Shown here: one piece after another, positions 1-49,516 of the stretch
Position numbering within the stretch: position 1 is the stretch's first letter
Layout of the letters: every line of letters starts with the position of its first letter
From: Escherichia phage BubbaBully
Sequence record: OR896831.1
Reading direction: 5' to 3' (one strand)
Length of the DNA: 51,209 nt
Notes under the pieces: model-generated
The model's input: the letters and a program-made list of their open reading frames with translations, nothing else
What the model was told of the DNA's origin: nothing
Databases searched by the model: none
Position numbers and translations under genes: made by a program

Positions 1-1572
1 ATGCTGATATGGGAAGATTTAACAGTGGCGCAGAAACGCGCCATTAAGGAAATGAGTGAATACTCGTTTGAGAAAATGATTCGAATCTGGTTCCAGTTGC
101 TCCAGGGTCAGAAATTCCTGGGTAACTGGCATTTCAGCTATTTGTGCCACGAAGTAGAGAAAATCATTTCCGGCGAGTCGCAAAACGTGATCTTTAACAT
201 CACGCCAGGCTCAGGTAAAACCGAGGTATTCTCGATCCATATGTCGCCTTATGCGTCACTGAAAAGCAAGAAGGTGCGAAACCTTAACCTGTCGTTCTCT
301 GATGGCCTTGTCCAGCAGAACAGCAACCGAATCAAGGAAATCATAGGCTCTCCAGAGTGGCAGGAGCTATGGCCTGGCAAGCTGGCGAAAGCGAGCGCGA
401 AAGATCTGATTGTGCAGGACGGAAACGGAAAGGTTAAGTTGCAAGTCAACTCCCGATCCATCGGCGGCCAGGTAACGGGTTTGCGTGGCGGTTACATGGA
501 TGATGGATTTACCGGAATGTTGGTACTTGACGATCCAGATAAACCTGACGACATGTTCTCAAAGGTGCGGCGCGAAGCGATTCACAACCGCCTTAAAAAC
601 ACCGTTCGCTCTCGTCGAATGAAGGACACCACGCCTATTGTGATGGTTCAGCAGCGCCTACACGTCAACGATTCGACGTGGTTTATGACAAGCGGCGGTA
701 TGGGCGGAATCGAGTTTAAGGTTGTGAGTATTCCCGCGCTGGTTACGAAAGAGTATGGCGAGACTCTCCCTGATTGGTTAAAGCCAGAGTTTGAGCGTGA
801 TGTGCTGAATAGCGAACCAGTTTACATTGACGGCGTGGCGCACTATTCATTCTGGCCTGCAAAGGAGAGCGCAAAGGACTTGCTCGCGCTGCGAGAAGCG
901 GATCCGTATACTTTTGCGTCACAGTACCAGCAGCAGCCGATAGCGCTGGGTGGCAACGTATTCAAGGTGGATTGGTTCCAGTTTTATGGCGACGGCGAGA
1001 AATGCACGCTGCCGAAACCGGATCGCTTTGAATACACGTTTATCACTGGCGATACGGCACAGAAAGCCGGAGAGCTTAACGACTATTCTGTTTTCTGTTA
1101 TTGGGGCATGTTCAAGAATCGTGTTTACTTTATCGACGGCATCCGTGGGAAATGGGAGGCTCCAGATCTGGAAACGAATTTTAAGGCTTTCGTCAATCAA
1201 TGCTGGAAGCGTAACAAAGAGTGCGGTAGCTTGCGCCGGATCCACATAGAGGATAAAGCGAGCGGAACAGGTTTGATTCAGGGCGCAAAAAAGAGTTTGC
1301 CTATTGACATAAATCCCGTTCAGCGCAGCACTGACAAAGTTACTCGCGCAATGGACGCAGCGCCAGTAATGCGAGCCGGACGCGTTGCGCTGCCAGAGAG
1401 TCACCCGATGCTAAACGAGATCCTCTCAGAGGTAGCGGCTTTCACTTTCGACGACTCGCACCCGAACGACGATATCGTAGATAACATCGTTGATGCGGTT
1501 AACGTTGAAATGAACCTGGCAGACGATCCAGTAGCGCGAATGAAAAAGCTTGCTGGGCTACGGAAGAAATAG
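1..1572 (+). CDS. terL: terminase large subunit
   Basis: 523-aa ORF beginning at window position 1; Walker A-like PGSGKT near N-terminus; follows putative TerS if the window is circularised. Confidence 0.8.
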   Translation: MLIWEDLTVAQKRAIKEMSEYSFEKMIRIWFQLLQGQKFLGNWHFSYLCHEVEKIISGESQNVIFNITPGSGKTEVFSIHMSPYASLKSKKVRNLNLSFSDGLVQQNSNRIKEIIGSPEWQELWPGKLAKASAKDLIVQDGNGKVKLQVNSRSIGGQVTGLRGGYMDDGFTGMLVLDDPDKPDDMFSKVRREAIHNRLKNTVRSRRMKDTTPIVMVQQRLHVNDSTWFMTSGGMGGIEFKVVSIPALVTKEYGETLPDWLKPEFERDVLNSEPVYIDGVAHYSFWPAKESAKDLLALREADPYTFASQYQQQPIALGGNVFKVDWFQFYGDGEKCTLPKPDRFEYTFITGDTAQKAGELNDYSVFCYWGMFKNRVYFIDGIRGKWEAPDLETNFKAFVNQCWKRNKECGSLRRIHIEDKASGTGLIQGAKKSLPIDINPVQRSTDKVTRAMDAAPVMRAGRVALPESHPMLNEILSEVAAFTFDDSHPNDDIVDNIVDAVNVEMNLADDPVARMKKLAGLRKK

Positions 1573-1587
1573 CACGAATTGCTAAAA
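1569..1587 (+). promoter_or_regulatory. conserved 19-bp box (ATAGCACGAATTGCTAAAA), copy without the canonical -10 arrangement
   Basis: Exact box sequence; TAG stop of terL lies inside the box; followed by a terminator hairpin instead of the usual 22-bp spacer plus -10. Confidence 0.5.
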
Positions 1588-1601
1588 GCGTGTACAATAA
1601 A

Positions 1602-1625
1602 GGCTGGACTTTTCCAGCCTTTTTT
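1602..1625 (+). terminator. intrinsic terminator-like hairpin between terL and portal
   Basis: GGCTGGA-cttt-TCCAGCC stem followed by T6. Confidence 0.55.
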
Positions 1626-1643
1626 ATTATGGGAGATCAGATA

Positions 1644-2918
1644 ATGACCGAGAAAACAAAACTCGTTAAGGCTGACGGCTACAACGAGATCTTTAAGGGA
1701 GATCAGCGAGTGGAGACGCCGTTTTACATGCAGGGCGGCGTTGCAAAGCAGAGTCTTGCAACATTCTACGAGCGTGACGGCATGGCAAAGCGAATCATCG
1801 ACGTGATCCCGGAGGACATGGTTACGCCAGGTTTTAACGTTGATGGCGTGAAAGACGAGGCGGCATTCCGATCCCTTTGGGATGAAAAGAAGCTAAACGC
1901 TAAAATCATTGATGCTCTTTGCTGGTCGCGCCTGTTTGGAGGCTCAGCGATTGTTGCCGTTATCAACGATGGGCGCATGTTGAAATCACCAGCAAAAGAA
2001 GGAGCGCCGCTTGAGGATATTCGCGTTTATGACCGATTCCAGATCCGAGTTGAGAAGCGAGAAACCAACGCGCGAAGCGTGCGCTACGGCGAGCCTGTTT
2101 TGTACACCATTATGCCAGGCGGCGAGATTCCAGAGTATCAGGTGCATTACACGCGAATCTGCATTATCGACGGCGAGCGCTTGCCTAACGAGCAGCGCCG
2201 AAAAAATGATGGCTGGGGCGCGTCAATTCTCAACAAAAAGCTGATCGAGGCAATCCATGATTATAACTATTGCGAGGAGCTAGCAACTCAGCTTTTACGA
2301 CGCAAGCAGCAAGCAGTTTGGAAGGCAAAAGGACTTGCGGATTTGTGCGACGATGAAGAAGGTGTTTCCGCTGCGCGGCTGCGATTGGCTCAAGTTGACG
2401 ACGAAGGCGGCGTGGGTCGGGCAATTGGTATTGACGCAACGGACGAGGAATACGAGGTGCTTAACTCTGACATTTCAGGCGTTGACACATTCCTTGAGAA
2501 GAAAATGGATCGCATCGTTTCGCTTACTGGCATCCATGAAATCATCTTGAAGAACAAAAACACCGGAGGCGTTAGCGCAAGCCAAAACACGGCGCTTGAC
2601 ACTTATCACAAACTGATCGAGCGCAAGCGTAAAGAGGACTACAAGCCGATCCTGGAATTCCTCTTGCCATTCATGGTGGCAGAGCAGGAGTGGTCTATTT
2701 CGTTTGATCCGCTTTCGGTTCCGAGCGACAAAGACCAGGCTGAAATCTTGAATAAAAATATTGACTCGATCAGCAAGGCGATTGAAGGTCAGTTTATGGA
2801 TGTTGAGGAAGGACGCGACACATTGCGCTCTATCGCCCCGTCTCTTAAACTGAAAGACGGCAACAAAATCAAGCTACCGGAACCGGAGCAGGAGCCGGAG
2901 CCAGGAACGGAGGTTTAA
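1644..2918 (+). CDS. portal protein
   Basis: Large ORF directly after terL; start moved to ATG at 1644 (GGGAGA RBS) from alt-start track ORF 1590; position and size typical of portal. Confidence 0.65.
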   Translation: MTEKTKLVKADGYNEIFKGDQRVETPFYMQGGVAKQSLATFYERDGMAKRIIDVIPEDMVTPGFNVDGVKDEAAFRSLWDEKKLNAKIIDALCWSRLFGGSAIVAVINDGRMLKSPAKEGAPLEDIRVYDRFQIRVEKRETNARSVRYGEPVLYTIMPGGEIPEYQVHYTRICIIDGERLPNEQRRKNDGWGASILNKKLIEAIHDYNYCEELATQLLRRKQQAVWKAKGLADLCDDEEGVSAARLRLAQVDDEGGVGRAIGIDATDEEYEVLNSDISGVDTFLEKKMDRIVSLTGIHEIILKNKNTGGVSASQNTALDTYHKLIERKRKEDYKPILEFLLPFMVAEQEWSISFDPLSVPSDKDQAEILNKNIDSISKAIEGQFMDVEEGRDTLRSIAPSLKLKDGNKIKLPEPEQEPEPGTEV

Positions 2919-2921
2919 TCC

Positions 2922-3671
2922 ATGAAGGTAAAAGGAATCGTTAAGCAGTGGAGATTTCCAGAAGCCAGCGAGCGGCAATTAAGCCGCTCCATTAAAGAGG
3001 CTGTAAGGGATCTGGTTGTGTTTATGCGCAGCAAAACAAGGGCGATGAAGTTTGACGCTACAGATCAGGAGATAAGCAGCGCGGAGGACGAGATCAAAGA
3101 TTTCGCAAAAGAGCTTGCGCTCTCCCTGATTGGTCTACTTCCGGCGCTTGCGTCTGCCGTGTACAAGTTCAACTCCAAGCAGTGGGTAAACGTGGCGAAA
3201 TCAACAGGTGGCGCGAACAATCCTGTTATCATCCTGCTAATCGCAGTCGGAGCCAATCAGAGCGAGGAATGGTATCAAACGCTTTACGGCGAGTGGAGCA
3301 ACATGAGCGCGGCCTCGTTTGATAAGCTTTTCACTAACATAATTAACGATTGGTCTGCTAACATCAGGCAAGCAAATTTCACCGGAAAGAAAGCCGAGCA
3401 AGTGAACGAGATCGCGGAGCGTCGATTCGCTGTTTACTCTTCATGGGCTGGAAACCGCGCAACGGGAATCATTGGATCGTGGAATAGTCGCCTTATGCGC
3501 CAGAGGTTGCTAGATGCTGGGGTGAATTCTTATTATTGGCATGGTATGCTAGACGAGCGCGAGCGACTCAAACACTTACAATGGGAGGGAAAGGAGATCG
3601 GGATTGACGAGATTCACCCCTTCCCTGGCGAGGAGTACGGTTGCAGATGTTGGGCTATTCCAAAATGGTAG
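2922..3671 (+). CDS. head morphogenesis protein (Mu F / SPP1 gp7-like)
   Basis: 249-aa ORF immediately after portal; position and size as in Mu-F-like minor head proteins. Confidence 0.55.
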   Translation: MKVKGIVKQWRFPEASERQLSRSIKEAVRDLVVFMRSKTRAMKFDATDQEISSAEDEIKDFAKELALSLIGLLPALASAVYKFNSKQWVNVAKSTGGANNPVIILLIAVGANQSEEWYQTLYGEWSNMSAASFDKLFTNIINDWSANIRQANFTGKKAEQVNEIAERRFAVYSSWAGNRATGIIGSWNSRLMRQRLLDAGVNSYYWHGMLDERERLKHLQWEGKEIGIDEIHPFPGEEYGCRCWAIPKW

Positions 3672-3682
3672 AGGAGAATTGA

Positions 3683-4798
3683 ATGAAAAAGGTACAGCGT
3701 TTTGATAGCGTTCAGGTCAAAGCAAAGATTGACGAGCACGGTTTTCTTGTAGACCGTCCGATTGTTGCCCGTATCGGGTTGCAGGTTTACAAGACTCCGT
3801 TTGGAGAGCGTCGAGAGTTTCGCCCCGCCTCAGAGGTTTTCAAAGCTGACTCACTGGCTACGTTTTCCGGTAAGCCGATCACTATCGGTCATGTAACCGT
3901 TACGCCGGAGAATGCAAAAGAGGTTGTTGTAGGCGCGTGCGCTGGCGCTGGCGTGCCAAACGGGATCGGTGTTGAGGTTCCTTTGAGCATTTACGACAAG
4001 CGAGCCATTCAGAGCGCGAAATCAAAACAGACCGCCGAGTTGTCAGTTGGTTACACCTCAGTTGACATTGATAAGCCAGGCTGGGGTAATAATGGCACTG
4101 GAGAATACTTTTTCGATGAAGATATGCCGGAGGGCTGGAAAGCCGACTCGGATGATTGGGTGCGATTCGATGCGGTTCAAACGAATATCAGCGTGAATCA
4201 TATCGCGATGGTGTTCAAAGGTCGCGCTGGCATCGCAAAATTAAATCTTGATAGCGAGCAGGAATTCCCGTATCATGACGAGGAATTTTCAAACAAAGAG
4301 GATGAAGTTATGACCGTAAAAATCAAATTAGACGGCGCGGTAGAATTTGATGTGCCAAAAGAGGTAGCCGCTCACATCAACGCGATCACCGCAAAAGCAG
4401 ATGAAGCAAACGCAAAAGCTGACAGCCTGGAAGCAGAGCGTGATGCGCTGCAAGCTAAGGTAGACGGTATTCCGGCGCAAATCGAGGCGGCAGTAGCACA
4501 AGCCAAGGCCGACGCAGAAGCCCACGCGGAACTGGTTGCCGTAGCTGGTGAGGCTGGCGTTAAGTGCGACGGCTTGGACGCAAAAGCGATCAAAGTCGCC
4601 TACGTCAAAGAGGTTACTGGTGCTGATATCGCAGAGAAAACCGACGCTTACATTGACGCCGCGTTTGATCTGGCGAAAAACTCTGATAAAATGGCAGCAC
4701 AGCGCAAAGCGATTAAAGGCGATGCGGAAAAGAAAGAGAAGCAAGACGGCGAAGATAAACCGCTGAATCCTGCGTCTCGTTTGGCTAAAGTACAGTAA
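3683..4798 (+). CDS. putative capsid scaffolding / maturation protein
   Basis: 371-aa ORF between head morphogenesis and capsid genes; C-terminal Ala/Lys/Glu-rich predicted coiled coil. Confidence 0.4.
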   Translation: MKKVQRFDSVQVKAKIDEHGFLVDRPIVARIGLQVYKTPFGERREFRPASEVFKADSLATFSGKPITIGHVTVTPENAKEVVVGACAGAGVPNGIGVEVPLSIYDKRAIQSAKSKQTAELSVGYTSVDIDKPGWGNNGTGEYFFDEDMPEGWKADSDDWVRFDAVQTNISVNHIAMVFKGRAGIAKLNLDSEQEFPYHDEEFSNKEDEVMTVKIKLDGAVEFDVPKEVAAHINAITAKADEANAKADSLEAERDALQAKVDGIPAQIEAAVAQAKADAEAHAELVAVAGEAGVKCDGLDAKAIKVAYVKEVTGADIAEKTDAYIDAAFDLAKNSDKMAAQRKAIKGDAEKKEKQDGEDKPLNPASRLAKVQ

Positions 4799-4810
4799 GG
4801 AGAAATAAAC

Positions 4811-5290
4811 ATGGCAATTCCAGCAACTTATCAAGCTACAATGGCTCGCGCACTGCCTGGCCAGGTTTCCGACACCTCAGCATATAACATTGACGGCGCG
4901 TGTGTTCTCGACGGCAGCGCTAACGTCCTTGTGGGCGTTGCGGTTCAGAATGGTGGTGTTGATTCTATGGGTAACAAACTGATCAAGCCTATGGCTGTAA
5001 GCGGCAAAGCTTACGGCGTTGCAATCCGCTCCCACTTCCAGACCGAAGCGGCAGACGGGCGAATGGTTTACGTTCCAGGCGGCGGCATCAACGTAATGAA
5101 TGAGGGTCGCGTTTGGATGCTGGCGGTAGATGGTCAGACTCAGAAGCCTTATGGTACTGCGATCAAGATCGAAGATTCCACTGGCAAGGTGGACACCGAA
5201 TCTGGCACTGTAGAGCCTAACTGGATCGCTACTGGTGACTTCACAGAGTTCCAGGGTCTTAAGTTGATTGAGGTTCAGGTTAAGCAGTAA
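4811..5290 (+). CDS. head-associated protein, paralog A (decoration-like)
   Basis: 159 aa; shares GRVW...WxxTGD pattern with the next ORF; upstream of major capsid gene. Confidence 0.45.
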   Translation: MAIPATYQATMARALPGQVSDTSAYNIDGACVLDGSANVLVGVAVQNGGVDSMGNKLIKPMAVSGKAYGVAIRSHFQTEAADGRMVYVPGGGINVMNEGRVWMLAVDGQTQKPYGTAIKIEDSTGKVDTESGTVEPNWIATGDFTEFQGLKLIEVQVKQ

Positions 5291-5296
5291 TAAAAT

Positions 5297-5321
5297 GGCG
5301 CTCGGTTGAGCGCCTTTTTTT
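5297..5321 (+). terminator. intrinsic terminator-like hairpin
   Basis: GGCGCTC-ggtt-GAGCGCC followed by T7; between the two paralogous head genes. Confidence 0.55.
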
Positions 5322-5333
5322 ATGGAGGTAAGA

Positions 5334-5795
5334 ATGATTGACTACGGCGTTATATCTGGATGCGCTAATCCTGGCTTTCTCGTTGATTCAACAATCAGCA
5401 CGATAAACGGCGGTGGGGTTGTCGTTGGTGATCGAGTGTTTGCTGGGTTTGCAGTCTCAAACTACGGAATGATTGATCTGTATCAAACATACGGAGAGTT
5501 TGATCAGGCGAAGGGGGCTTGCGGTATAGTGATCGCAAGCTTGCACGGCTGCGCTGGCTATGGAATACCAGAGGGTGAAGAGGTTAGCGTTATAACCAAA
5601 GGCAGGGTTTGGGCTGTCATTTTACCGGATGAAGATAAGCCGAGAGAGGGGGATAGCGTTATGATTTCGGATGGCGGAATAATCACCTCGCTACCTGAGC
5701 GGTTGGCGCAGTCTCCAAGGGGCTGGGTTTTCACTGGAGACTACGAGAGATATTCACACGATTTATCACTTGCTGGGGTGTGGATTATCGGATAA
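5334..5795 (+). CDS. head-associated protein, paralog B
   Basis: Start at second ATG after GGAGGT RBS; paralogous to 4811-5290. Confidence 0.45.
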   Translation: MIDYGVISGCANPGFLVDSTISTINGGGVVVGDRVFAGFAVSNYGMIDLYQTYGEFDQAKGACGIVIASLHGCAGYGIPEGEEVSVITKGRVWAVILPDEDKPREGDSVMISDGGIITSLPERLAQSPRGWVFTGDYERYSHDLSLAGVWIIG

Positions 5796-5807
5796 CACAA
5801 AAATCTA

Positions 5808-5835
5808 TTGCACGTTTAACAAAAAGTGCTATCAT
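5808..5835 (+). promoter_or_regulatory. sigma70-like promoter for major capsid gene (TTGCAC-16-TGcTATCAT)
   Basis: -35 TTGCAC 5808-5813, 16-bp spacer, extended -10 TG-n-TATCAT 5827-5835; the reversed box lies within the spacer and -10. Confidence 0.45.
5815..5832 (-). promoter_or_regulatory. conserved box, reversed orientation, overlapping capsid promoter
   Basis: TTTAACAAAAAGTGCTAT is the reverse complement of the box; followed by 8-bp hairpin 5839-5859 and strong RBS. Confidence 0.5.
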
Positions 5836-5876
5836 TGAGGCTGTTAATCGCTAACAGCCTTTAAGGAGAAAGAAAC

Positions 5877-6839
5877 ATGACTAAAAAGTATGACGAATTT
5901 GACGCCAGCGTTGTAACCGCTCACCTGCAAATGCAGGGCGTTAAAAATGACGCTTCCGATATGGGTATCTGGACTGCGCAGGAGCTTCACAAGATCCGCT
6001 CCTCTGCATACGAAAAAGAATACCCTGTAGGCTCCGCGCTGCGAGTGTTCCCTGTCACCAACGAACTGAGCGACACTGACAAGACTTTCGAATACCAGAC
6101 TTTCGATAAAGTTGGCTACGCTAAAATCATCGCTGATTATACCGACGACCTGCCAACCGTTGACGCGCTGATGTCAACCGAGTTTGGTAAAGTGTTCCGC
6201 TTGGGTAACGCTTTCCTGATCTCCATTGACGAAATCAAAGCAGGTCAACGCACTGGTAAGAGCCTGAGCGCTCGCAAGGCAAACGCCGCGCAGAATGCTC
6301 ACGACCAGCTTGTAAACTTCCTGGTGTTCAAGGGTTCCAAGCCGCACAAAATTCTGAGCGTGTTTGAACACCCTAACCTGACCAAGATCGTAGCCGCTAA
6401 AAAATGGTACGACTCAAGCTCAAAAGCCAAAGAGCCAGAGCAAGCTTTCGACGATCTGACTGCGGCAATCGAAGCGCTGGAGACTCAGACCAACGGGCAG
6501 CACCGCGCTACCCACATTCTGATCCCGCCAAGCGTCCGTAAAGTTCTGATGGTTCGCATGGAAAATACCACTGAGAGCTACCTGGAATACTTCCAGAAGC
6601 AAAACGGCGGTATCACCATTGAAGCAATCGCAGAGCTTGAAGATATCGACGGTTCCGGCGGCAAGGGCGTACTGGTGTACGAAAAAGATCCAATGAATAT
6701 GTCCATTGAGATCCCCGAAGCATTCAATATGCTGCCAGCGCAGCCTAAAGACCTGCATTTCAAAGTGCCTTGCACCTCTAAATGCACTGGTCTGACAATC
6801 TATCGCCCATTAACTCTTGTGTTAATCACTGGCGTGTAA
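5877..6839 (+). CDS. major capsid protein
   Basis: 320 aa; own promoter, strong RBS AAGGAGAAAG, terminator downstream; position after scaffold and decoration genes. Confidence 0.65.
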   Translation: MTKKYDEFDASVVTAHLQMQGVKNDASDMGIWTAQELHKIRSSAYEKEYPVGSALRVFPVTNELSDTDKTFEYQTFDKVGYAKIIADYTDDLPTVDALMSTEFGKVFRLGNAFLISIDEIKAGQRTGKSLSARKANAAQNAHDQLVNFLVFKGSKPHKILSVFEHPNLTKIVAAKKWYDSSSKAKEPEQAFDDLTAAIEALETQTNGQHRATHILIPPSVRKVLMVRMENTTESYLEYFQKQNGGITIEAIAELEDIDGSGGKGVLVYEKDPMNMSIEIPEAFNMLPAQPKDLHFKVPCTSKCTGLTIYRPLTLVLITGV

Positions 6840-6845
6840 TATTAT

Positions 6846-6874: not shown

Positions 6875-6890
6875 GTTTAGGAGATAAACA

Positions 6891-7163: not shown

Positions 7164-7169
7164 TCATGA

Positions 7170-8801: not shown

Positions 8802-9461
8802 ATGCATCTTCCAAACGGTTCACAGATTTTTATCGAAGCCTCTCGCGGCACAGAGCTTTCAGCTAGCGCGATCACCAATGCAGAAAAACCAGTTTTCACA
8901 ATGAGCGACACTGACGATCTAGCAAAAGGTGATTACGTTATTGTAACGGAGTCCTCATGGGGTAAACTGCTAGATCGCGTCCTGCGGGTGAGCGAGGTTT
9001 CCAGCAACTCAAGCGCCACCCTTGAAGGTATCGACACCACCGACACTAACGTTTTCCCTAACGGCGCAACTGCAAAGATCGCAAAGATTAAAGCATGGTC
9101 TGAAATCCCTTGCGTTCAGGATCTTGCACAGGACGGCGGCGAGCAGCAATACTATACTTACCAGTGCCTGTCCGACGACCAGGAGCAGCAGCTACCTACC
9201 TACAAGAGCGCCGTTTCCCTGACGTACACCTTTGCGCACGAGTACGATAACGCAATCTATCCTCTGCTGCGTAAGGCAGATGAAAACGGTGAAGTCACCG
9301 CAATGCGCATGTACGTGCCGAAAGCGAAAGAAATGCGTTGCTGGGCTGGCGTGCTGTCATTCAACGAGATCCCGCAAACTGCGGTTAACGAAATGGAAAC
9401 CGTTTCCCTTTCTTGCTCGCTGAAAGGCCGCTACACATTCCTTCCTGCATCACAGGACTAA
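8802..9461 (+). CDS. major tail protein
   Basis: 219 aa after RBS AAAGGAGAA; directly upstream of the G/GT chaperone and tape measure genes; terminator follows. Confidence 0.6.
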   Translation: MHLPNGSQIFIEASRGTELSASAITNAEKPVFTMSDTDDLAKGDYVIVTESSWGKLLDRVLRVSEVSSNSSATLEGIDTTDTNVFPNGATAKIAKIKAWSEIPCVQDLAQDGGEQQYYTYQCLSDDQEQQLPTYKSAVSLTYTFAHEYDNAIYPLLRKADENGEVTAMRMYVPKAKEMRCWAGVLSFNEIPQTAVNEMETVSLSCSLKGRYTFLPASQD

Positions 9462-9467
9462 TCACAA

Positions 9468-9502
9468 GGGGCGTTGCGCCCCTTTTTTTATTCCTGTAAA
9501 AT
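9468..9502 (+). promoter_or_regulatory. terminator-promoter fusion unit (hairpin + T7 + TTGCGC-17-TAAAAT)
   Basis: GGGGCG-ttg-CGCCCC stem, T-run 9483-9489; -35 TTGCGC formed by loop and 3' arm (9474-9479), -10 TAAAAT 9497-9502. Confidence 0.5.
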
Positions 9503-9528
9503 CACTCTACCAAATTCAAACAATCCAC

Positions 9529-9547
9529 TTTTAACAAAAAGTGCTAT
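9529..9547 (-). promoter_or_regulatory. conserved box, reversed orientation, in tail-operon leader
   Basis: TTTTAACAAAAAGTGCTAT immediately upstream of the RBS of gene G. Confidence 0.5.
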
Positions 9548-21681: not shown

Positions 21682-21724
21682 ACAGCACAAATAGCTAAAC
21701 AAATGAAAATGGAGGTGTTATAAT
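21682..21724 (+). promoter_or_regulatory. degenerate box promoter with extended -10 inside a hairpin loop
   Basis: ACAGCACAAATAGCTAAAC matches the box at 15 of 19 positions; TGtTATAAT 21716-21724 lies in the loop of ATGGAGG/CCTCCAT (21709-21732). Confidence 0.45.
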
Positions 21725-21758
21725 GCCTCCATCAAGTAAACAAAGAGAGGGTTTTAAA

Positions 21759-28453: not shown

Positions 28454-28510
28454 GGCTTTCTCCAATAAAAAATCGCGTAGCCGGATGATACCAGATACGC
28501 GATCTTTGGT

Positions 28511-28951
28511 TTAGCTATTCGTGCTGTTTATGAAGTCCGACTCTTTCACGACGCGCAGCATTTCGTATCGGTCGCATTTCGTCGTTAGCGCTTTTCCGTT
28601 GGAGTCAAATCTCAGGTCAGGACGGCAGAATGAAGCTCGATATCCCTTGCAGCCGTTTCGCTTATAGTCGGCGTGAACCTTTTCGGCTCCAGAAACTGAA
28701 ATCATCCCGCGCTTGCGCCACTGCTGAATAACTTGGTGAGTAACCTTTAAACGCCTTGTCATTTCCGCCTGAGATCCGTAATATTCGCAAACGGCATCTA
28801 GACGAGCACGCAATCCGGCTTTGACTTCATCCTTTAGAACGTAGTAGCCTGTTTTGCGCTTGCGTTTTTTCTTGTCTTTACCGCGCTTTACCCCGTTGTT
28901 GCCATTGATTGTGCGCTTGTCAATTTCGCCAGTTGATGCAGCAATTTTCAT
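28511..28951 (-). CDS. putative HTH DNA-binding protein with basic N-terminus and Cys cluster
   Basis: Start at internal ATG 28951 (GGAGG RBS); track ORF N-terminus overlaps the box of the divergent promoter; HTH-like segment MTRRLKVTHQVIQQWRKRGMIS. Confidence 0.45.
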   Translation of the reverse strand: MKIAASTGEIDKRTINGNNGVKRGKDKKKRKRKTGYYVLKDEVKAGLRARLDAVCEYYGSQAEMTRRLKVTHQVIQQWRKRGMISVSGAEKVHADYKRNGCKGYRASFCRPDLRFDSNGKALTTKCDRYEMLRVVKESDFINSTNS

Positions 28952-28964: not shown

Positions 28965-29008
28965 ATAGCACTTTTTGCTAAAAACATTCAAAACGTAGGC
29001 GCTATTAT
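28965..29008 (+). promoter_or_regulatory. box promoter (box + 22-bp spacer + TATTAT) for helicase gene
   Basis: ATAGCACTTTTTGCTAAAA 28965-28983; -10 TATTAT 29003-29008; 32 nt upstream of the helicase start. Confidence 0.55.
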
Positions 29009-29040
29009 ACATTCAATCGGTTAACGAATAAAGGTTAAAA

Positions 29041-31043: not shown

Positions 31044-31460
31044 ATGGTTACTGACAAAGGCGATTATCTGGAATACTACGAACGGGATCCGAGCGATACG
31101 CGCAAGGAGGATTCGCACCAGGTTGATTGTGTGGCGTGGTTGCGCCACCACTACCCGCACTTGCTTTTCTGGCACACTGTCAACGAGGGGAGCAAGACAA
31201 TAACCGCCGCTCTGCGTGACGAACAGGCCGGATTGCTCAAGGGTGTTTCCGATTTCGTTATCCTGATTGGTTCCGGTAAATATCCGTTTGCAGCCATAGA
31301 GCTAAAGCAAGCCAACAAATCAGGGAAGCGCAAAGCTTCACCAGTCAGCGATAACCAGAAAGCTTTCTTGAGCAAGGTTAGGGCGCTGGGTGGATTTGCC
31401 GCTGTGTGTTATGGCGTGAAGCAATTCAAACTTGCAATTGCAGATCTCTTGCAGGAATAG
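31044..31460 (+). CDS. VRR-NUC domain nuclease
   Basis: Start ATG 31044 just after helicase stop; D...ELK PD-(D/E)XK-type motif. Confidence 0.6.
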   Translation: MVTDKGDYLEYYERDPSDTRKEDSHQVDCVAWLRHHYPHLLFWHTVNEGSKTITAALRDEQAGLLKGVSDFVILIGSGKYPFAAIELKQANKSGKRKASPVSDNQKAFLSKVRALGGFAAVCYGVKQFKLAIADLLQE

Positions 31461-31500
31461 CACTTTTTGTTAAAACCCGCTTAGGCTGGTTTTGTATTAT
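31457..31500 (+). promoter_or_regulatory. box promoter (box + 22 bp + TATTAT)
   Basis: Box starts inside the TAG stop of upstream gene; -10 at 31495-31500; CA-rich leader to ATG 31530. Confidence 0.55.
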
Positions 31501-31529
31501 GCACACAACAAACAAACACGGAGAACGAA

Positions 31530-31979
31530 ATGAAAAAACAAATTGTAGGCGCTGCGATAATAATCGCATCTGTATTGGTGGCATGGAAAGCACCATCATT
31601 AATAGAGAGCATGGTTAAAGATCCGATTGACATTGATCTTAATCGAAAGGCTTGCATTATGGCATCAAAGAAATCAGTTAATGATTTCGTTATCACTAAC
31701 GAATATGAACTAAGCGATAAGGCAAGGCGAAAGGCTTATCTTGTTATTTCTCAGCAGTGTAAGCTTTCTGTTTATTCCGAGAACGGAGAGCACGCAAGAG
31801 AGCCTAAAACCTTAAAAACAGCAGGAAGTATGTTTATTGATGGACTTGATTATGAGGAATCATTGACGGTTCGATATGCCAAAAAGCGCTCAGACTTTAA
31901 CGGAAAAATTGTTGCAAAAATGGGAGTCAAGGAAGTCTCAAAGTGGATAGAAAACTTTGAGGACGCAAACAGAAAATAG
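31530..31979 (+). CDS. hypothetical exported protein (N-terminal signal peptide / anchor)
   Basis: 149 aa; hydrophobic N-terminal segment IVGAAIIIASVLVAW. Confidence 0.5.
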   Translation: MKKQIVGAAIIIASVLVAWKAPSLIESMVKDPIDIDLNRKACIMASKKSVNDFVITNEYELSDKARRKAYLVISQQCKLSVYSENGEHAREPKTLKTAGSMFIDGLDYEESLTVRYAKKRSDFNGKIVAKMGVKEVSKWIENFEDANRK

Positions 31980-32019
31980 CACGAATTGCTAAAACGCCGG
32001 ATGATGAATCCGGCATAAT
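31976..32019 (+). promoter_or_regulatory. box promoter (box + hairpin + CATAAT)
   Basis: Box overlaps TAG stop; 7-bp stem GCCGGAT/ATCCGGC 31996-32014; -10 at 32014-32019. Confidence 0.55.
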
Positions 32020-32050
32020 ACACCCAACGAAAACAAATGAGGATTTGAAA

Positions 32051-33420: not shown

Positions 33421-33464
33421 ATAGCACTTTTTGTTAAAAATGCCCGGCGAAAGTCGGGCATAAT
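33421..33464 (+). promoter_or_regulatory. box promoter (box + hairpin + CATAAT)
   Basis: Box begins directly after TAA stop; stem GCCCGGC/GTCGGGC; -10 at 33459-33464. Confidence 0.55.
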
Positions 33465-33496
33465 CATTTCCAACGAAAACCACTGAGGAAAACGAA

Positions 33497-33706: not shown

Positions 33707-33944
33707 GCAAGGCCGCGAGGCCGTTTGGAATCACGCCAAAGAAACAGGAATGGCAGACGATATAGCACGAATTGCTAAAATATTTGATCTGGCTGATGTT
33801 AGTATTATCAGCAACGGGAAAATGACTTACTTACACGAGAGGCCGCGCAAAATGCACCGTGTGCCAGCAATCCCGACAAAAATCGACTTCAAAGAAGCAA
33901 TGGCAAAAATCAGAGAGCCGAAAAAGTATTACAAAGGAGAATAG
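33696..33944 (+). CDS. hypothetical protein (contains an in-frame copy of the box)
   Basis: 82-aa ORF; codons for IARIAK are the box sequence. Confidence 0.5.
   Translation: MKVEQGREAVWNHAKETGMADDIARIAKIFDLADVSIISNGKMTYLHERPRKMHRVPAIPTKIDFKEAMAKIREPKKYYKGE
33762..33805 (+). promoter_or_regulatory. intragenic box promoter (box + 22 bp + TG-n-TAGTAT)
   Basis: Exact box inside CDS 33696-33944 with extended -10 at 33797-33805. Confidence 0.45.
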
Positions 33945-38665: not shown

Positions 38666-38693
38666 CTTAAAGTCTCCTTGTTGGTTGACCCGT

Positions 38694-38737
38694 ATTATAG
38701 GTCAACCATCTTACAGCCTTTTAGCAATTCGTGCTAT
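38694..38737 (-). promoter_or_regulatory. box promoter (box + 22 bp + TATAAT in hairpin loop)
   Basis: Box 38719-38737 overlaps TAG stop of upstream gene; TATAAT 38694-38699 in loop of GGTTGACC/GGTCAACC. Confidence 0.55.
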
Positions 38738-39523: not shown

Positions 39524-39553
39524 TTATTATCCTCAATTCGTTTCGTTGAGATA

Positions 39554-39597
39554 ATAATAGCGGATCTTATCGACCCGCTTTTAACAAAAAGTGCTAT
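39554..39597 (-). promoter_or_regulatory. box promoter (box + hairpin + TATTAT)
   Basis: Box 39579-39597 (- strand), stem AGCGG/CCGCT, -10 at 39554-39559. Confidence 0.55.
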
Positions 39598-40915: not shown

Positions 40916-40946
40916 ACGTTTGTCCTCGTTTGTTGTCGATGGCGCT

Positions 40947-40990
40947 ACTATACCAGGCCGCAGCGCCGGAGTTTTAACAAAAAGTGCTAT
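40947..40990 (-). promoter_or_regulatory. box promoter (box + 22 bp + TG-n-TATAGT in hairpin loop)
   Basis: Box 40972-40990; TATAGT at 40947-40952 within GGCGCT/AGCGCC hairpin. Confidence 0.55.
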
Positions 40991-41841: not shown

Positions 41842-41872
41842 AGTAAATTCCTCAGTTCGTTTCGATGAATGC

Positions 41873-41916
41873 ATTATGCCGAAATCAGATCAGTCTGTTT
41901 TAGCAAAAAGTGCTAT
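41873..41916 (-). promoter_or_regulatory. box promoter (box + 22 bp + CATAAT) driving the leftward accessory block
   Basis: Box 41898-41916; -10 at 41873-41878; CA-rich leader. Confidence 0.55.
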
Positions 41917-43260: not shown

Positions 43261-43304
43261 ATAGCACTTTTTGTTAAAAACGCCCCGCGCGAGTGGGGCA
43301 TAAT
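43261..43304 (+). promoter_or_regulatory. box promoter (box + hairpin + CATAAT)
   Basis: Box 43261-43279; stem GCCCC/GGGGC; -10 at 43299-43304. Confidence 0.55.
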
Positions 43305-43334
43305 GCACCCAACGAAACAACACGGAGAAATGAA

Positions 43335-43866: not shown

Positions 43867-43958
43867 GCAACTTCCACAACGAGCACGTCATGCAGTGGTG
43901 GCGGCATCGCGTAAAGAATTTCGAACTGTATCGCCACGAGTGGAAATTTAGCGAATAG
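43863..43958 (+). CDS. small basic protein (31 aa), not in ORF track
   Basis: ATGA overlap with upstream stop; TAG stop lies inside the next box. Confidence 0.3.
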   Translation: MSNFHNEHVMQWWRHRVKNFELYRHEWKFSE

Positions 43959-43998
43959 CACGAATTGCTAAAAACTTGATCGGGTGTGCTGGTATAGT
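43955..43998 (+). promoter_or_regulatory. box promoter (box + 22 bp + TG-n-TATAGT in hairpin loop)
   Basis: Box 43955-43973; TATAGT 43993-43998 inside GGGTGT/ACACCC hairpin. Confidence 0.55.
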
Positions 43999-44030
43999 AC
44001 ACCCATCAACAACGAACCAAGGACTTAACA

Positions 44031-45147: not shown

Positions 45148-45359
45148 TTATCACGCACAACGTAGAGCCGAGCGCAAACACCGCACAGGATATGATTGCT
45201 GGAATGCCGCCAAAATCGCACAGAATGGTGCGTGTGTGGGGATTTCAGGGCAATGTAAGCCAAACGCTCAAGGAAATTTTAGCCCTGCCAGAAGTCGATG
45301 CAGCGCTTGTGGGGGTGCATACAAATGAATATGTTTCTTTCCACATCGTGACAAAATAG
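45144..45359 (+). CDS. hypothetical protein
   Basis: 71-aa ORF; TAG stop inside the next box. Confidence 0.45.
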   Translation: MIITHNVEPSANTAQDMIAGMPPKSHRMVRVWGFQGNVSQTLKEILALPEVDAALVGVHTNEYVSFHIVTK

Positions 45360-45399
45360 CACGAATTGCTAAAACGCGCTCCGAGAGGGGCGCTATAAT
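45356..45399 (+). promoter_or_regulatory. box promoter (box + hairpin + TATAAT)
   Basis: Box 45356-45374; imperfect stem GCGCTCC/GGGGCGC; TATAAT 45394-45399. Confidence 0.55.
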
Positions 45400-45430
45400 G
45401 CACCCATACCAACCAACGAGGGAAAACAAA

Positions 45431-46146: not shown

Positions 46147-46191
46147 ATAGCACTTTTTGCTAAAGACTTTCCGCAAGGCCATTGGTATAGT
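46147..46191 (+). promoter_or_regulatory. box promoter (box + 23 bp + TG-n-TATAGT in hairpin loop)
   Basis: Box ATAGCACTTTTTGCTAAAG 46147-46165; TATAGT 46186-46191 within AAGGCCA/TGGCCTT hairpin. Confidence 0.55.
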
Positions 46192-46229
46192 GGCCTTATT
46201 GAAAGCAACCACGCAAACAGGAGATAAAA

Positions 46230-47235: not shown

Positions 47236-47433
47236 ATGGCTGGTAACACACTGAAAACTATCGGCGCAGTCCTGTTAATCGTTGGCGGCTCACTGCTTAC
47301 TGAGCCAGGTTTCTTTAACTCAGTAGGCACATTTGCGGTGTTGTGTGGCGGTCTTATCGGCGGCTACATGGACGGCAGGAGAGCTGGGCGGCGCGAGGCT
47401 TTCGGCGGTGAAGATAAAAATCCGATAAAATAG
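47236..47433 (+). CDS. small membrane protein
   Basis: Start at ATG 47236 (AAGGGG RBS) within track ORF 47116-47433; two hydrophobic segments. Confidence 0.4.
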   Translation: MAGNTLKTIGAVLLIVGGSLLTEPGFFNSVGTFAVLCGGLIGGYMDGRRAGRREAFGGEDKNPIK

Positions 47434-47473
47434 CACGAATTGCTAAAACTTCCGCGAGGGCATTTGGTATAGT
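47430..47473 (+). promoter_or_regulatory. box promoter (box + 22 bp + TG-n-TATAGT in hairpin loop)
   Basis: Box 47430-47448 overlapping TAG stop; TATAGT 47468-47473 within GAGGGCA/TGCCCTC hairpin. Confidence 0.55.
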
Positions 47474-47515
47474 GCCCTCATTGAAGCAAAGCAACCAATC
47501 AAAGGAGATAACGAA

Positions 47516-48000: not shown

Positions 48001-48611
48001 AATATGTAAAACCAACGACAAGCGGTTTCGGTTACACGGCTGGCAAACTATATCAGATCCTGTTGACCTATGAGGGCGGTCAATTTGTTGTTAAGAACGA
48101 CAAAGGGGTTAATCAGATTATTCGCGGCGACGGCAAGCCGTCATTACGGTTAGAGCGTGGCGGAAAGTTTGAGATTGTGGATATTCCAGAACCTGGCGAG
48201 GCTCAAGAGTACGCAGTTGAAACAGCAAAAAAGACAAGCGAGGCTCTACGCGAGCACGTCAAAGGGATTGTGAAAGATTCTATTGTTAGCGCGGCGTTGC
48301 CTGGTGGCGTGCTTCATAAGGCAGTAAGCGAAAGCGATCACTTGCGAGCAGTGCGCCAAATCGCAGCAAACGCAACAGAGCTTGCAAGCGAGATTGCATC
48401 AGGTCGATATGATGCAAGTCTCTATATGAGACTTGAAAAGGCAGAACGCGAGGCGGAGCAGCACAAAGCGGATTGCATCAAAGCGGAAGCAATTGTTGAT
48501 CAGCTTTATGACATATTCCCGCAGGTGCGCAATCCAGAGCAATTGATTGCAGCAGTTCGCAGTTCGAAAATCTTTGCTGATGCGTTTTTGGAACTGCAAA
48601 AGGTTAAATAG
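47997..48611 (+). CDS. hypothetical protein
   Basis: Start at ATG 47997 overlapping upstream stop; 204 aa. Confidence 0.5.
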   Translation: MKYVKPTTSGFGYTAGKLYQILLTYEGGQFVVKNDKGVNQIIRGDGKPSLRLERGGKFEIVDIPEPGEAQEYAVETAKKTSEALREHVKGIVKDSIVSAALPGGVLHKAVSESDHLRAVRQIAANATELASEIASGRYDASLYMRLEKAEREAEQHKADCIKAEAIVDQLYDIFPQVRNPEQLIAAVRSSKIFADAFLELQKVK

Positions 48612-48651
48612 CACTTTTTGTTAAAGCTTCCGCGAGGACATTTGTTAAAGT
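48608..48651 (+). promoter_or_regulatory. box promoter (box + 22 bp + TAAAGT in hairpin loop)
   Basis: Box 48608-48626 overlapping TAG stop; TAAAGT 48646-48651 within GAGGACA/TGTCCTC hairpin. Confidence 0.5.
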
Positions 48652-48685
48652 GTCCTCATTGAAGCGAAACACGGAGATTTAGGAA

Positions 48686-48895
48686 ATGGCTGTATACACT
48701 GGCAAGATGTTTGAAAGCGAAAACCCGATTTACGGCGGCACTTATGAGCTAATCATTGATGAAGATCGCGTAATTCTGGCTGATGACTATAACCAAGAAT
48801 ATTACGAAGTAGAAGCCGATAAATGGGATGACGACGTTATGTTTCTTGTTGATAATAGCCGCATCAAGTTTTATGCAGTGGAGGAAGAAGAATGA
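48686..48895 (+). CDS. small highly acidic protein
   Basis: 69 aa, Asp/Glu-rich, ends VEEEE. Confidence 0.5.
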   Translation: MAVYTGKMFESENPIYGGTYELIIDEDRVILADDYNQEYYEVEADKWDDDVMFLVDNSRIKFYAVEEEE

Positions 48896-49143
48896 TCACA
48901 ATTAACCTATCAGAAGAACAAGCGAAATCATTGTTGCGCGGCCTGGGCTGGCGAATGGGTAGCGGTAGCGAGGCGGTTGTAAACATCAAAGAGGAAGTAG
49001 CAAGAGAGCTTTTTGCACAGCTTGAGCATAAACTGATGCCAGCCTCAACAAGCGCGGCGGAGCTTGCTGTGTGGCGGCATGAAAACGGCCTTAATGAAAT
49101 GGATGTTGAGAAGTGGAAGCGTAAAAACGAGGTGATGAAATGA
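48892..49143 (+). CDS. hypothetical protein
   Basis: 83-aa ORF, ATGA overlap. Confidence 0.45.
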   Translation: MITINLSEEQAKSLLRGLGWRMGSGSEAVVNIKEEVARELFAQLEHKLMPASTSAAELAVWRHENGLNEMDVEKWKRKNEVMK

Positions 49144-49478
49144 TTTATATTCATAGCTACGGTGTCGGCAAGTTTGGCAACAAACAGATCCGAAATATTC
49201 ACGACACGCTCGATGAAGCAATGGCACAGCAACGCGTTTTAGGTGGAGTGGTTAAGGCGTTTGAGTCAGTGGAAAACTTAGAAAGCGAATGGATGGAGCG
49301 CGAGCACATAAAGGATTTGATTGTTGATGAGGTGTCATGCCTGATTGACGATCTCACAACTGACGCGCCAGGCTCGCCGCGAAACTATGAGCATGGTTCG
49401 TCTCAGTGGGATAGCTGGAAGGTTAAAACGCTTAACAACCTCCGCAATATCCTTGATGGAAAATTTAACGAAATTTAA
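49140..49478 (+). CDS. hypothetical protein
   Basis: 112-aa ORF, ATGA overlap. Confidence 0.5.
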   Translation: MIYIHSYGVGKFGNKQIRNIHDTLDEAMAQQRVLGGVVKAFESVENLESEWMEREHIKDLIVDEVSCLIDDLTTDAPGSPRNYEHGSSQWDSWKVKTLNNLRNILDGKFNEI

Positions 49479-49516
49479 TAGTGTTTAAAGCGCCTCAGAG
49501 CGATTATAGGAGGCGC
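49478..49516 (+). promoter_or_regulatory. degenerate (internally deleted) box with hairpin carrying a TATAG element
   Basis: ATAG-TGTTTAAAG resembles the box with about 7 nt missing; stem GCGCCTC/GAGGCGC 49490-49516 with TTATAG in loop. Confidence 0.3.

Follow-up and report, generated by a model that had tools for sequence, protein, structure and literature searches.

The marbox is an asymmetric 20-bp site to which MarA, SoxS, or Rob (in Klebsiella and Enterobacter also RamA) binds as a monomer. In class II promoters, as described in the literature, a forward box overlaps the -35 region and is centred at -41.5. The E. coli class II MarA/SoxS/Rob promoters micF, sodA, nfo, lpxC P2, and lpxL P1 have 18 bp between this site and the -10 hexamer and no good -35, and the phage units described below are alike in both respects. 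These units also resemble the PeSLs of T4-type phages, which are short composite units of a promoter and a stem-loop repeated between small early genes, and both kinds can move between genomes (PMC2839356, PMC4122927). PeSLs, however, have a sigma70 -35/-10 (or MotA box) promoter and a separate stem-loop, whereas the units found here have a marbox in place of the -35 and the stem-loop inside the promoter.

The repeat on which the units are built is not new as such, as it is the same element as the 21-nt intergenic direct repeats (aaATAGCACnnnTTGnTAAAA) reported for phage TLS in 2024 and noted too in T1, Rtp, and Rogue1 (PMC11447400). The TLS repeats are oriented with transcription, ~76 nt ahead of start codons, and can be grouped by their middle triplet (TTT, GAA, or AAA); a stoperator, an enhancer site, or an UP element was offered as a possible role. 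That paper mentions no fixed -10, hairpin, marbox match, or reversed copies.

The DNA analysed here (the window, 51,209 nt) is the complete genome of the T1-like phage BubbaBully of the Drexlerviridae, and is ~91% identical to Henuseptimavirus. Using ATAGCACNNNTTGYTAAAA with up to 2 mismatches, the 19-nt box was found 18 times in the whole window, relative to 0.11 matches expected from shuffled controls. The initial annotation had listed 15 loci in which the box is followed by a fixed gap and a -10 hexamer, and all of them were recovered at the annotated positions and strands. The annotated gap of 22 bp from TTGYTA to the -10 corresponds to 19 nt when counted from the box end and was found in 13 of the 15 units. 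The unit at 46147 is the one longer-spaced case already recognized (20 nt from box end to -10), and the gap did not hold at 33762, where the -10 is either a weak TAGTAT, at 19 nt, or a TATTAT that is 22 nt away. In strict copies the middle triplet is TTT or GAA only. The initial annotation had also described a frequent overlap with the TAG that ends the upstream gene; such overlaps with the stop of the preceding ORF were found at 1572, 31460, 31979, 45359, 47433, 48611, and 38734. The individual copies are as follows.

28965..29015 (+): unit upstream of the DNA helicase gene; marbox 28965-28983, -10 TATTAT 29003-29008, predicted +1 ~29015.
31457..31507 (+): unit; marbox 31457-31475, its TAG being the stop codon of the VRR-NUC gene; -10 TATTAT 31495-31500.
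31976..32026 (+): unit; marbox 31976-31994, hairpin GCCGGAT/ATCCGGC, -10 CATAAT 32014-32019.
33421..33471 (+): unit; marbox 33421-33439, hairpin GCCCGGC/GTCGGGC, -10 CATAAT 33459-33464.
33762..33812 (+): unit with an ambiguous -10; marbox 33762-33780, TAGTAT 33800-33805 or TATTAT 33803-33808.
43261..43311 (+): unit; marbox 43261-43279, hairpin CCCCGC/GTGGGG, -10 CATAAT 43299-43304.
43955..44005 (+): unit; marbox 43955-43973, TGgTATAGT as an extended -10 (hexamer 43993-43998) in a GGGTGT/ACACCC loop.
45356..45406 (+): unit; marbox 45356-45374, hairpin GCGCTCC/GGGGCGC with one T·G pair, -10 TATAAT 45394-45399.
46147..46198 (+): unit with 20-nt spacing; marbox 46147-46165, -10 TATAGT 46186-46191 in an AAGGCCA/TGGCCTT loop.
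47430..47480 (+): unit; marbox 47430-47448, TGgTATAGT (hexamer 47468-47473) in a GAGGGC/GCCCTC loop.
48608..48658 (+): unit; marbox 48608-48626, TGtTAAAGT (hexamer 48646-48651) in a GAGGAC/GTCCTC loop.
38687..38737 (-): unit upstream of the DUF3987 helicase gene; marbox 38719-38737, -10 TATAAT 38694-38699 in a GGTTGACC/GGGTCAACC loop.
39547..39597 (-): unit; marbox 39579-39597, hairpin GCGGGTC/GATCCGC, -10 TATTAT 39554-39559.
40940..40990 (-): unit; marbox 40972-40990, TGgTATAGT (hexamer 40947-40952) in a GGCGCT/AGCGCC loop.
41866..41916 (-): unit at the divergent early control region, without a strong hairpin; marbox 41898-41916, -10 CATAAT 41873-41878.
21682..21731 (+): degenerate unit; ACAGCACAAATAGCTAAAC, -10 TATAAT 21719-21724 at 18 nt, in a TGGAGG/CCTCCA loop.
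28478..28527 (-): degenerate unit upstream of the primase gene; ACAGCACGAATAGCTAAAC 28509-28527, TGgTATCAT (hexamer 28485-28490) within a hairpin.
1569..1622 (+): exact box, flanked by the large terminase and portal genes; intrinsic terminator 1599-1622 downstream.
49478..49516 (+): remnant unit; ATAGTGTTTAAAG without GCAC, followed by hairpin GCGCCTC/GAGGCGC.

The -10 of the helicase unit (29003-29008) overlaps a divergent minus-strand TATAAT that faces the gene for a Cro-like regulator. The degenerate boxes at 21682-21700 and 28509-28527(-) belong to the ACAGCAC...AGCTAAAC variant type, and in both the gap to the -10 is 18 nt; ACAGCACAAATAGCTAAAC has 0 mismatches to the marbox consensus. In the 28478..28527(-) unit the hairpin around the -10 is followed by a T-run, and terminator and promoter therefore overlap. 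The copy at 1569-1587, previously listed as variant or partial, is present, but the box itself is exact. It is probably not a class II promoter, because a terminator lies downstream and no correctly spaced -10 was found there.

The unit is kept in related genomes. In BubbaBully, T1, TLS, and JohannLBurckhardt together, 82 units were counted; 56 have their best -10 at 19 nt, and in 12 the distance is 18 or 20 nt. The units have no usable -35, and the box centre is near -41, the class II activator position, both in line with the annotation; canonical sigma70 sites were indeed no commoner than chance in the early region (19 versus 24 ± 5 expected). Two features had been missed: a G at -14 in 85% of the units, and a C-A dinucleotide 6-7 nt past the -10 that is conserved at 74% (C) and 89% (A). 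The G at -14 gives many units an extended -10 that needs no -35, and one could propose that no dedicated factor is involved, the box being passive or UP-like and kept uniform through cassette spread and recombination. PeSLs are composite promoter/stem-loop cassettes of this type linked to gene shuffling, the units have moved as cassettes into the T4-like phages KP15 and RB16, and an UP element was raised by the TLS authors (PMC11447400). We consider this proposal quite improbable. The box spans about -50 to -31 instead of -40 to -60, GCAC and not an A/T tract forms its invariant core, and the GAA variants are without a T-tract. The adjoining spacer varies freely while the box is nearly invariant across subfamilies, which argues for selection on the box over gene conversion.

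The box was found to fit the enterobacterial marbox consensus AYnGCACnnWnnRYYAAAYn in the forward orientation, 18 bp from the -10. With the consensus AYNGCACNNWNNRYYAAAYN and ≤1 mismatch, 23 matches were obtained versus 1.1 expected, and the marbox pattern GCAHWWWWTGYYAAA (PMC6900184) gave 20 matches versus 1.5 expected. The variable positions of the phage box (8-10, 14, and 19) are the degenerate positions of the marbox. The micF promoter of E. coli consists of ACAGCACTGAATGTCAAAAC + 18 bp + TAGAAT, sodA and nfo likewise have a forward marbox, 18 bp, and a -10, and the modal phage spacing is identical to that of all three. With the conserved C-A at positions 50/51 set as -1/+1, the phage G4, A6, G13, Y14, A16, and A17 fall at -47, -45, -38, -37, -35, and -34, respectively. 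These six positions are exactly the bases contacted by Rob in the cryo-EM complex of the class II micF promoter, and the GCAC and YYAAA elements occupy the same coordinates in both. As judged by sequence comparison, the box matches the host site for MarA, SoxS, and Rob at base-pair resolution. The occurrence of about twenty units with a near-perfect marbox at the activating position suggests that the phage borrows these host activators for its early genes.

The phage units differ in several respects from the E. coli class II marbox promoters. They are carried by a virulent phage at ~15-20 copies per 50 kb, their boxes are near-identical to one another and nearer to the consensus than host sites, most of them adjoin or run into the stop codon that ends the preceding gene, they have an RNA hairpin inside the spacer/discriminator, and their binding by the host regulators is a prediction. 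The box is also more conserved than the host consensus demands (A3, T11, T12, A19, and the AA just upstream), and its reader could be more specific than MarA, SoxS, or Rob. The phage has T at position 15, in contrast to the C of many host sites, but the mar promoter's own marbox has T as well. No exact phage box was found in enterobacterial chromosomes. Unstressed cells contain little MarA and SoxS, Rob is largely sequestered, and T1-like phages grow well in ordinary broth, all of which counts against a host activator.

The initial annotation attributed the box to a phage-specific factor, which would activate or repress the units. The candidates are the Cro/YdaS-like regulator (28511-28951(-)), the winged-helix protein (36692-37084(-)), and an unrecognised small protein. 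Such a factor would account for a conservation that exceeds the host consensus, the Cro-like regulator is conserved across T1-like phages with its gene start adjoining the helicase unit, and the annotated TAGCA-N5-TGCTA core is partly palindromic, as in dimeric HTH operators. However, box conservation is asymmetric, and the palindrome looks incidental, because the ACAGCAC...AGCTAAAC copies break 2 of its 5 pairs yet fit the asymmetric marbox. No MarA homologue was found in the six-frame ORFs of four phages (phmmer; best E 2), and no AraC-type domain was found in 25 non-structural ORFs (Pfam). The 130-aa HTH protein models as a winged helix and not as the MarA fold. The same units are found in the podoviruses IME_EC2 and C130_2, which are unrelated to BubbaBully; profile HMMs of both T1-type HTH proteins had no match in either (best E 0.27), and no regulator common to the window and these two phages was found. 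The cassettes also persist in T4-like phages without any of these genes, and the match to the host site in base and position would have to be coincidence. A phage-encoded reader is thus unlikely. Since there is neither an AraC-type protein nor a regulator shared with the unit-carrying podoviruses, we favor, with some reservation, a host activator as the likeliest box-binding factor.

The reading that we prefer, with moderate confidence for the whole including the roles of the hairpin and reversed boxes, is that the units are class II activator-dependent sigma70 promoters with a near-consensus marbox. The host activator would bind the forward box, centred near -41, and would contact region 4 of sigma70 and the alpha C-terminal domain in place of the missing -35 contact. 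RNA polymerase would then open the -10 (often TGnTATAGT) and start at the conserved A seven nucleotides on. About 15-17 units would drive early and replication genes in this manner on both arms of the genome.

A third feature missed by the initial annotation is a sequence-variable hairpin between the box and the start site. Its mean MFE is -10.2 kcal/mol, relative to -4.5 kcal/mol in random windows (p = 4e-19). Among copies that are related and thus non-independent, 193 compensatory changes were counted versus 25 in a slid control, and in-stem mismatches were G·T in 78 cases versus A·C in 5, and the hairpin therefore folds as sense-strand RNA. These data also fit a joint action of box and hairpin in RNA, as a processing, stability, or antitermination signal like boxA and boxB of nut sites; the box is part of the untranslated 3' end of the preceding gene, and within the box arms only one base varies, a C or T that faces a G, in line with G-C or G-U pairing. 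We regard this as highly improbable. The box stem has five weak pairs that are broken in variant copies, and the unconserved sequences and loops of the hairpins imply no specific RNA-binding protein. The rigid 19-nt gap to the -10, the G at -14, and the C-A start are features of a DNA promoter, and in IME_EC2 the hairpin is past the start site with the box-to-(-10) spacing unchanged. Under the class II promoter reading, the hairpin would form only in read-through RNA from the upstream gene, where it most likely marks or stabilises the 3' end of that transcript; new transcripts would start past the hairpin or within it and so escape it.

Two boxes, 5814-5832(-) and 9529-9547(-), point against the direction of the late genes.

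5806..5838 (+): predicted late promoter upstream of the major capsid gene; TTGCAC 5806-5811, 16-bp spacer, TGcTATCAT to 5835.
9460..9547 (-): reversed unit, flanked by the major tail and chaperone genes; marbox 9529-9547, TGgTAGAGT (hexamer 9504-9509).

The spacer of the capsid promoter is filled by the reversed marbox, which is a repression-type position, and a terminator-like hairpin (5838-5863) is found downstream. A marbox within the promoter spacer is a known repression geometry, as in pbpG, and MarA/SoxS/Rob repression through a core-promoter marbox has also been reported for rob, purA, and hdeA. The phage box occupies the -35/-10 spacer as the pbpG marbox does; unlike pbpG, the capsid promoter is a prediction, and the end of the box supplies its -10. 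The host activator proposed for the early units would also hold this late promoter down. The layout is kept in T1 (TTGACG-16-TATTAT), TLS, and JohannLBurckhardt. The reversed unit at 9460..9547(-) would produce a short antisense RNA that runs into the bidirectional terminator at 9466-9484, and this arrangement is kept in T1.

The window was found to be the complete, circularly permuted genome of a T1-like siphophage (Drexlerviridae), with the large terminase gene first and the small terminase gene last. It is ~91-93% identical to Enterobacter phage N5822, Escherichia phages JohannLBurckhardt, IsaakIselin, and Henu7 (genus Henuseptimavirus), and Klebsiella phage Samwise. Searching the window with the 19-nt box, ATAGCAC-N3-TTGYTAAAA, returned 18 matches at ≤2 mismatches, compared with 0.11 expected. 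All 15 loci of the initial annotation were recovered, each directed toward its downstream gene. The fixed distance from box to -10 hexamer described there held at 19 nt for 13 of the 15; it is 20 nt in unit 46147 (units are named by start coordinate) and ambiguous in unit 33762. The forward orientation of a class II site was observed for the 15 canonical units and for 2 degenerate ones, which face the downstream gene on either strand. The variant and reversed copies are as follows.

1569: exact box; a real terminator comes next, and a usable -10 is lacking
21682: ACAGCAC...AGCTAAAC version of the box, with the -10 at 18 nt
28509, - strand: ACAGCAC...AGCTAAAC version of the box, with the -10 at 18 nt
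49478: box remnant without GCAC
5814-5832, - strand: reversed box in the 16-bp spacer of a predicted + strand promoter ahead of the major capsid gene, TTGCAC-16-TGcTATCAT
9529-9547, - strand: reversed box with a good extended -10, TGgTAGAGT, at 19 nt

The architecture is family-wide, and 82 units were collected from the window, T1, TLS, and JohannLBurckhardt. The repeat family as such is already published and is not new. The 2024 re-annotation of TLS described 18 intergenic copies of aaATAGCACnnnTTGnTAAAA, oriented with transcription ~76 nt ahead of start codons and sorted into TTT, GAA, and AAA groups, and stated similar repeats for T1, Rtp, and Rogue1; only three sigma70-like promoters were found in TLS (PMC11447400). 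The role of the repeat was guessed to be that of stoperators, enhancer sites, or UP elements, and its function was listed as an open question (PMC11447400).

By its sequence, the box matches the marbox, the asymmetric 20-bp site for monomeric MarA, SoxS, and Rob of enterobacteria. The classical marbox consensus, reportedly set out by Martin and colleagues in 1999, is AYnGCACnnWnnRYYAAAYn, and this pattern recovered the phage boxes with 23 matches versus 1.1 expected. A second form of the consensus, GCAHWWWWTGYYAAA (PMC6900184), recovered them with 20 matches versus 1.5 expected. The asymmetric 20-bp consensus match of a class II marbox is present in the phage units; boxes with TTT as the middle triplet fit 15 of 15 marbox positions and those with GAA fit 14 of 15. 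In a logo built on 317 distinct units from the window and related loci, the positions that the marbox specifies are the invariant ones, and the variable positions 8-10, 14, and 19 are those at which the marbox is degenerate. For comparison, the marbox of the E. coli mar promoter itself reads ATGCCACGTTTTGCTAAATC in the forward direction, and that of micF reads ACAGCACTGAATGTCAAAAC. The degenerate phage copies break the TAGCA-N5-TGCTA palindrome and fit the marbox with 0 mismatches. A separate match with 0 mismatches to the marbox consensus, ATTGCACGAATGGCTAAAT, lies at 7620-7638 inside a head-tail gene and is outside the phage repeat family.

Class II marbox promoters carry a forward box that overlaps the -35 region and is centered at -41.5. 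In micF, 18 bp separate the 20-bp box from TAGAAT, and the annotated RNA start comes 8 nt past that hexamer; sodA and nfo share the forward marbox, the 18-bp interval, and a good -10, and in fumC, the fourth host comparison, the position of the -10 is ambiguous. Counting the phage box as 20 bp instead of 19 nt turns the 19 nt that follow it into the same 18 bp. Of the 82 units, 56 have their best -10 at 19 nt from the end of the 19-nt box (18 bp from that of the 20-bp box), and 12 have it at 18 or 20 nt (17 or 19 bp). The logo also displays G at -14 in 85% of the units. Six and seven nucleotides past the -10 come C (74%) and A (89%), the usual appearance of -1/+1. With the start site inferred from this C-A, the box overlies the -35 region near -41.5, ~18 bp from the -10, and the class II geometry recognized in the initial annotation is upheld. 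With the same predicted start, phage positions G4, A6, G13, Y14, A16, and A17 fall at -47, -45, -38, -37, -35, and -34, and these six coordinates are the DNA contacts of Rob in the cryo-EM complex of class II micF.

The core promoter resembles that of an activator-dependent class II site in that the -35 is weak or absent: the sequence 17 bp from the -10 is AAAANN, and no -35 was found at 16-18 bp from the -10 in the units. A sigma70 scan picked up none of the units, and neither half of the genome was enriched in canonical sigma70 sites (19 versus 24 ± 5 and 16 versus 21.6 ± 5.1 expected). One promoter at 42494-42530, TTGTGG-17-CATAAT with an A-tract ahead, has a -10 of the box-unit type and a CA-rich leader but no marbox; it precedes the DUF7174 gene at 42565 and is a candidate activator-independent immediate-early promoter. 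At 28951-29015, the -10 of the helicase unit (TATTAT, 29003-29008, + strand) overlaps a perfect - strand TATAAT (TTTATT-17-TATAAT). The latter faces the gene for a Cro-like regulator, whose ribosome-binding site abuts the helicase-unit marbox, and would compete with the helicase unit promoter.

Several other identities for the box were considered and rejected. Sigma54 promoters (-24/-12, TGGCAC-N5-TTGCW) have GG and GC exactly 10 bp apart; the box, TAGCAC-N3-TTGCT, has AG in place of GG and a spacing that is 2 bp short. In T4 middle promoters the MotA box, TGCTT, is centered at -30, 11-13 bp from the -10, whereas TTGYTA of the phage box is 22 bp from the -10. The two-fold symmetry of a dimeric HTH operator is lacking, since ATAGCAC and TTGYTAAAA are asymmetric and variant copies break 2 of the 5 palindrome pairs. 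The Lrp site has the consensus YAGHAWATTWTDCTR, whose arms match the box, but only 11-13 of 15 positions agree, conserved flanks are left over, and the marbox fits better. The match to an IHF site was poor. A UP element would be A/T-rich and lie at about -40 to -60 for the alpha C-terminal domain; the box covers about -50 to -31, GCAC forms its invariant core, and its GAA variants have no T-tract. The related proposal that the units are passive cassettes, either UP-like or homogenized by recombination, is at odds with the position of the box, with its GC core, and with an invariant box beside a freely varying spacer.

The question of which protein reads the box was addressed by searching for a phage regulator. 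No AraC-type protein was detectable when MarA was compared by phmmer with all six-frame ORFs of four T1-like genomes (best E = 2), and Pfam gave no HTH_18 or AraC match among 25 non-structural ORFs. The conserved regulator adjoining the helicase unit is a single-HTH protein of the Cro/YdaS type. A 130-amino acid "HTH" protein (36692-37084, - strand), conserved in T1-like phages and labeled "YdbL" or "HTH domain" in their records, is a winged helix in its AlphaFold model (pLDDT 90) and not a MarA fold; a PDB fold search with this model gave no significant match to solved structures (best E 0.27).

Units with the box, 19 nt, and a -10 were also found in the podoviruses IME_EC2 (Murrayvirus) and C130_2 (Hungariovirus), and single or double cassettes were found in the T4-like phages KP15 and RB16. 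Replication and methylase genes are all that the window has in common with IME_EC2 and C130_2, and profile HMMs of both T1-type HTH proteins gave no match in either podovirus. The hosts of all of these box-bearing phages are Enterobacteriaceae, a family that has MarA, SoxS, Rob, and, in some genera, RamA. Since no AraC-type protein was detected in the T1-like phages, no regulator is shared with the podoviruses, and the hosts all carry MarA/SoxS/Rob, a host activator would be the most economical reader of the box. We consider it rather probable that host proteins of the MarA/SoxS/Rob type act at these sites.

The phage-specific box-binding factor proposed in the initial annotation is probably wrong, as the box matches the host site base for base and no regulator is common to the box-bearing phages. 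A phage-encoded reader is possible, given the extra conservation of the box and the nearby Cro-like gene, but it would have to explain away the match to the host site and the missing common regulator. The box was also compared with the stoperators of L5-type mycobacteriophages, asymmetric repeats that are oriented with transcription and bound by the phage repressor. The orientation fits; however, this phage is virulent, the box-bearing phages have no common regulator, and the fixed distance to the -10 would be unaccounted for.

The cassettes of KP15 (10042-10425; 743-1126 of comparison locus L133) and RB16 (8232-8330 of comparison locus L071) have a T1-type box, hairpin, -10, and leader ahead of small ORFs. 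Two of those in KP15 are annotated as "putative middle promoter; discovered using MEME", and their spacing is unlike that of MotA-type promoters. Scanning a genome collection for an exact box plus -10 gave 59 matches scattered over AT-rich taxa, with no match in any enterobacterial chromosome, a result that is uninformative. Three exact units (L183-L185) lie on NZ_VSMK01000220.1, a 46,669-bp contig as large as a phage genome and labeled Nitratidesulfovibrio liaohensis, which is probably T1-like phage sequence within the assembly and not bacterial chromosome.

An inverted repeat of variable sequence was nearly always found between the box and the predicted start site. One form of the hairpin is just ahead of the -10, and its 3' arm ends GC|ATAAT; the other form has the -10 in its loop, and its 3' arm fills the discriminator. 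The mean folding energy of the 35-nt region was determined to be -10.2 kcal/mol, compared with -4.5 kcal/mol in windows drawn at random from these genomes (p = 4e-19). Among these related units, which are not phylogenetically independent, compensatory stem changes numbered 193 versus 25 in a slid-partner control. Single mismatches within stems, counts that are likewise not phylogenetically independent, were G·T in 78 cases and A·C in 5 (p = 6e-18). Because the mismatches are strand-asymmetric, a DNA cruciform or protein-bound palindrome was rejected, and the asymmetry indicates that it is the sense strand that folds, most simply as RNA. The hairpin precedes the predicted start and so could be formed only by RNA reading through from the upstream gene. 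We infer that it would end or protect the transcript of the upstream gene, and new transcripts would start beyond it.

Most T1-type hairpins have no U-run. In the 28509 (- strand) variant and in the capsid promoter, the -10 lies within a full terminator hairpin that has a U-run, and the predicted start is inside the stem. In IME_EC2 the hairpin lies downstream of the predicted start and would form the 5' end of the transcript, with the same spacing from box to -10; the IME_EC2 units 59, 28267 (- strand), 36230 (- strand), and 37538 (- strand) (comparison locus L127) have a GC-rich 5'-terminal stem-loop just past the predicted start. Rfam and tRNA scans found nothing. A signal in which box and hairpin act together at the RNA level would leave the rigid distance to the -10, the G at -14, and the C-A start unaccounted for. 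The units resemble PeSL cassettes, a composite promoter and stem-loop between small early ORFs, in having a significant hairpin and in flanking small early ORFs, but differ in that the near-consensus sigma70 -35/-10 of the latter is replaced by a -10 with no -35 at 16-18 bp.

The reversed box in the capsid promoter is placed as in known cases of repression, such as pbpG, where the marbox is inside the promoter spacer. The T1 counterpart is TTGACG-16-TATTAT, at which a promoter is predicted in the GenBank record as well, and the arrangement of promoter and reversed box is conserved in TLS and JohannLBurckhardt. Reading the reversed boxes as class I sites (backward and upstream) was rejected, as the distance from box to start codon is only ~44 bp. 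The 9529-9547 (- strand) unit would start a short antisense RNA (~40 nt) that runs into the bidirectional terminator past the major tail gene. The arrangement at 9460-9547 (- strand), including the -10 and the GATTTTACAG start region, is conserved in T1 (comparison locus L002, 18790-18850).

It is conceivable, but doubtful, that the ~20 near-consensus marboxes per genome serve jointly as a sensor and as a sponge or timer. As a sensor, they would tie early transcription to the state of host MarA/SoxS/Rob/RamA, which responds to bile salts, salicylate, oxidants, and antibiotics. As a sponge, the replicating genomes would present thousands of high-affinity sites that soak up the activators, the loss of which would collapse the host efflux/stress regulon and turn down the early units. 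The capsid promoter, with its reversed marbox in the spacer, would then be freed, giving an early-to-late switch without a phage regulator.

Three points appear to be new: the identification of the box as a near-consensus host marbox with the class II geometry of micF, the putative RNA-level hairpin inside the promoter, and the reversed copy of the repression type. No paper linking the marbox, MarA, SoxS, or Rob to T1-like phages or to phage promoters was found in the incomplete body of literature searched. The marbox reading makes the stated open question on the T1-like repeats (PMC11447400) directly testable, and it bears on how a large, common phage family transcribes its genes with few sigma70 promoters. 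If true, it would link phage early expression to the antibiotic efflux/porin regulon, with a bearing on combinations of phage and antibiotic. It would also provide a promoter annotation rule for Drexlerviridae, Murrayvirus, and Hungariovirus and a set of compact, strong, activator-dependent promoter parts.

Two features of the window lie apart from the box units. Strong intrinsic terminators are enriched between the late genes at 1-20000 (37 found versus 21.9 ± 4.1 expected), for example at 1599, 5297, 6844, 9466, 13309, 15443, and 18946, and several run into -10-like TATTAT/TATAAT sequences. The 325-bp divergent region that separates the two early arms contains dense TGATTG/GATTG repeats at 41920-42040; it is the counterpart of the T1 genome ends and could be a packaging or replication site.
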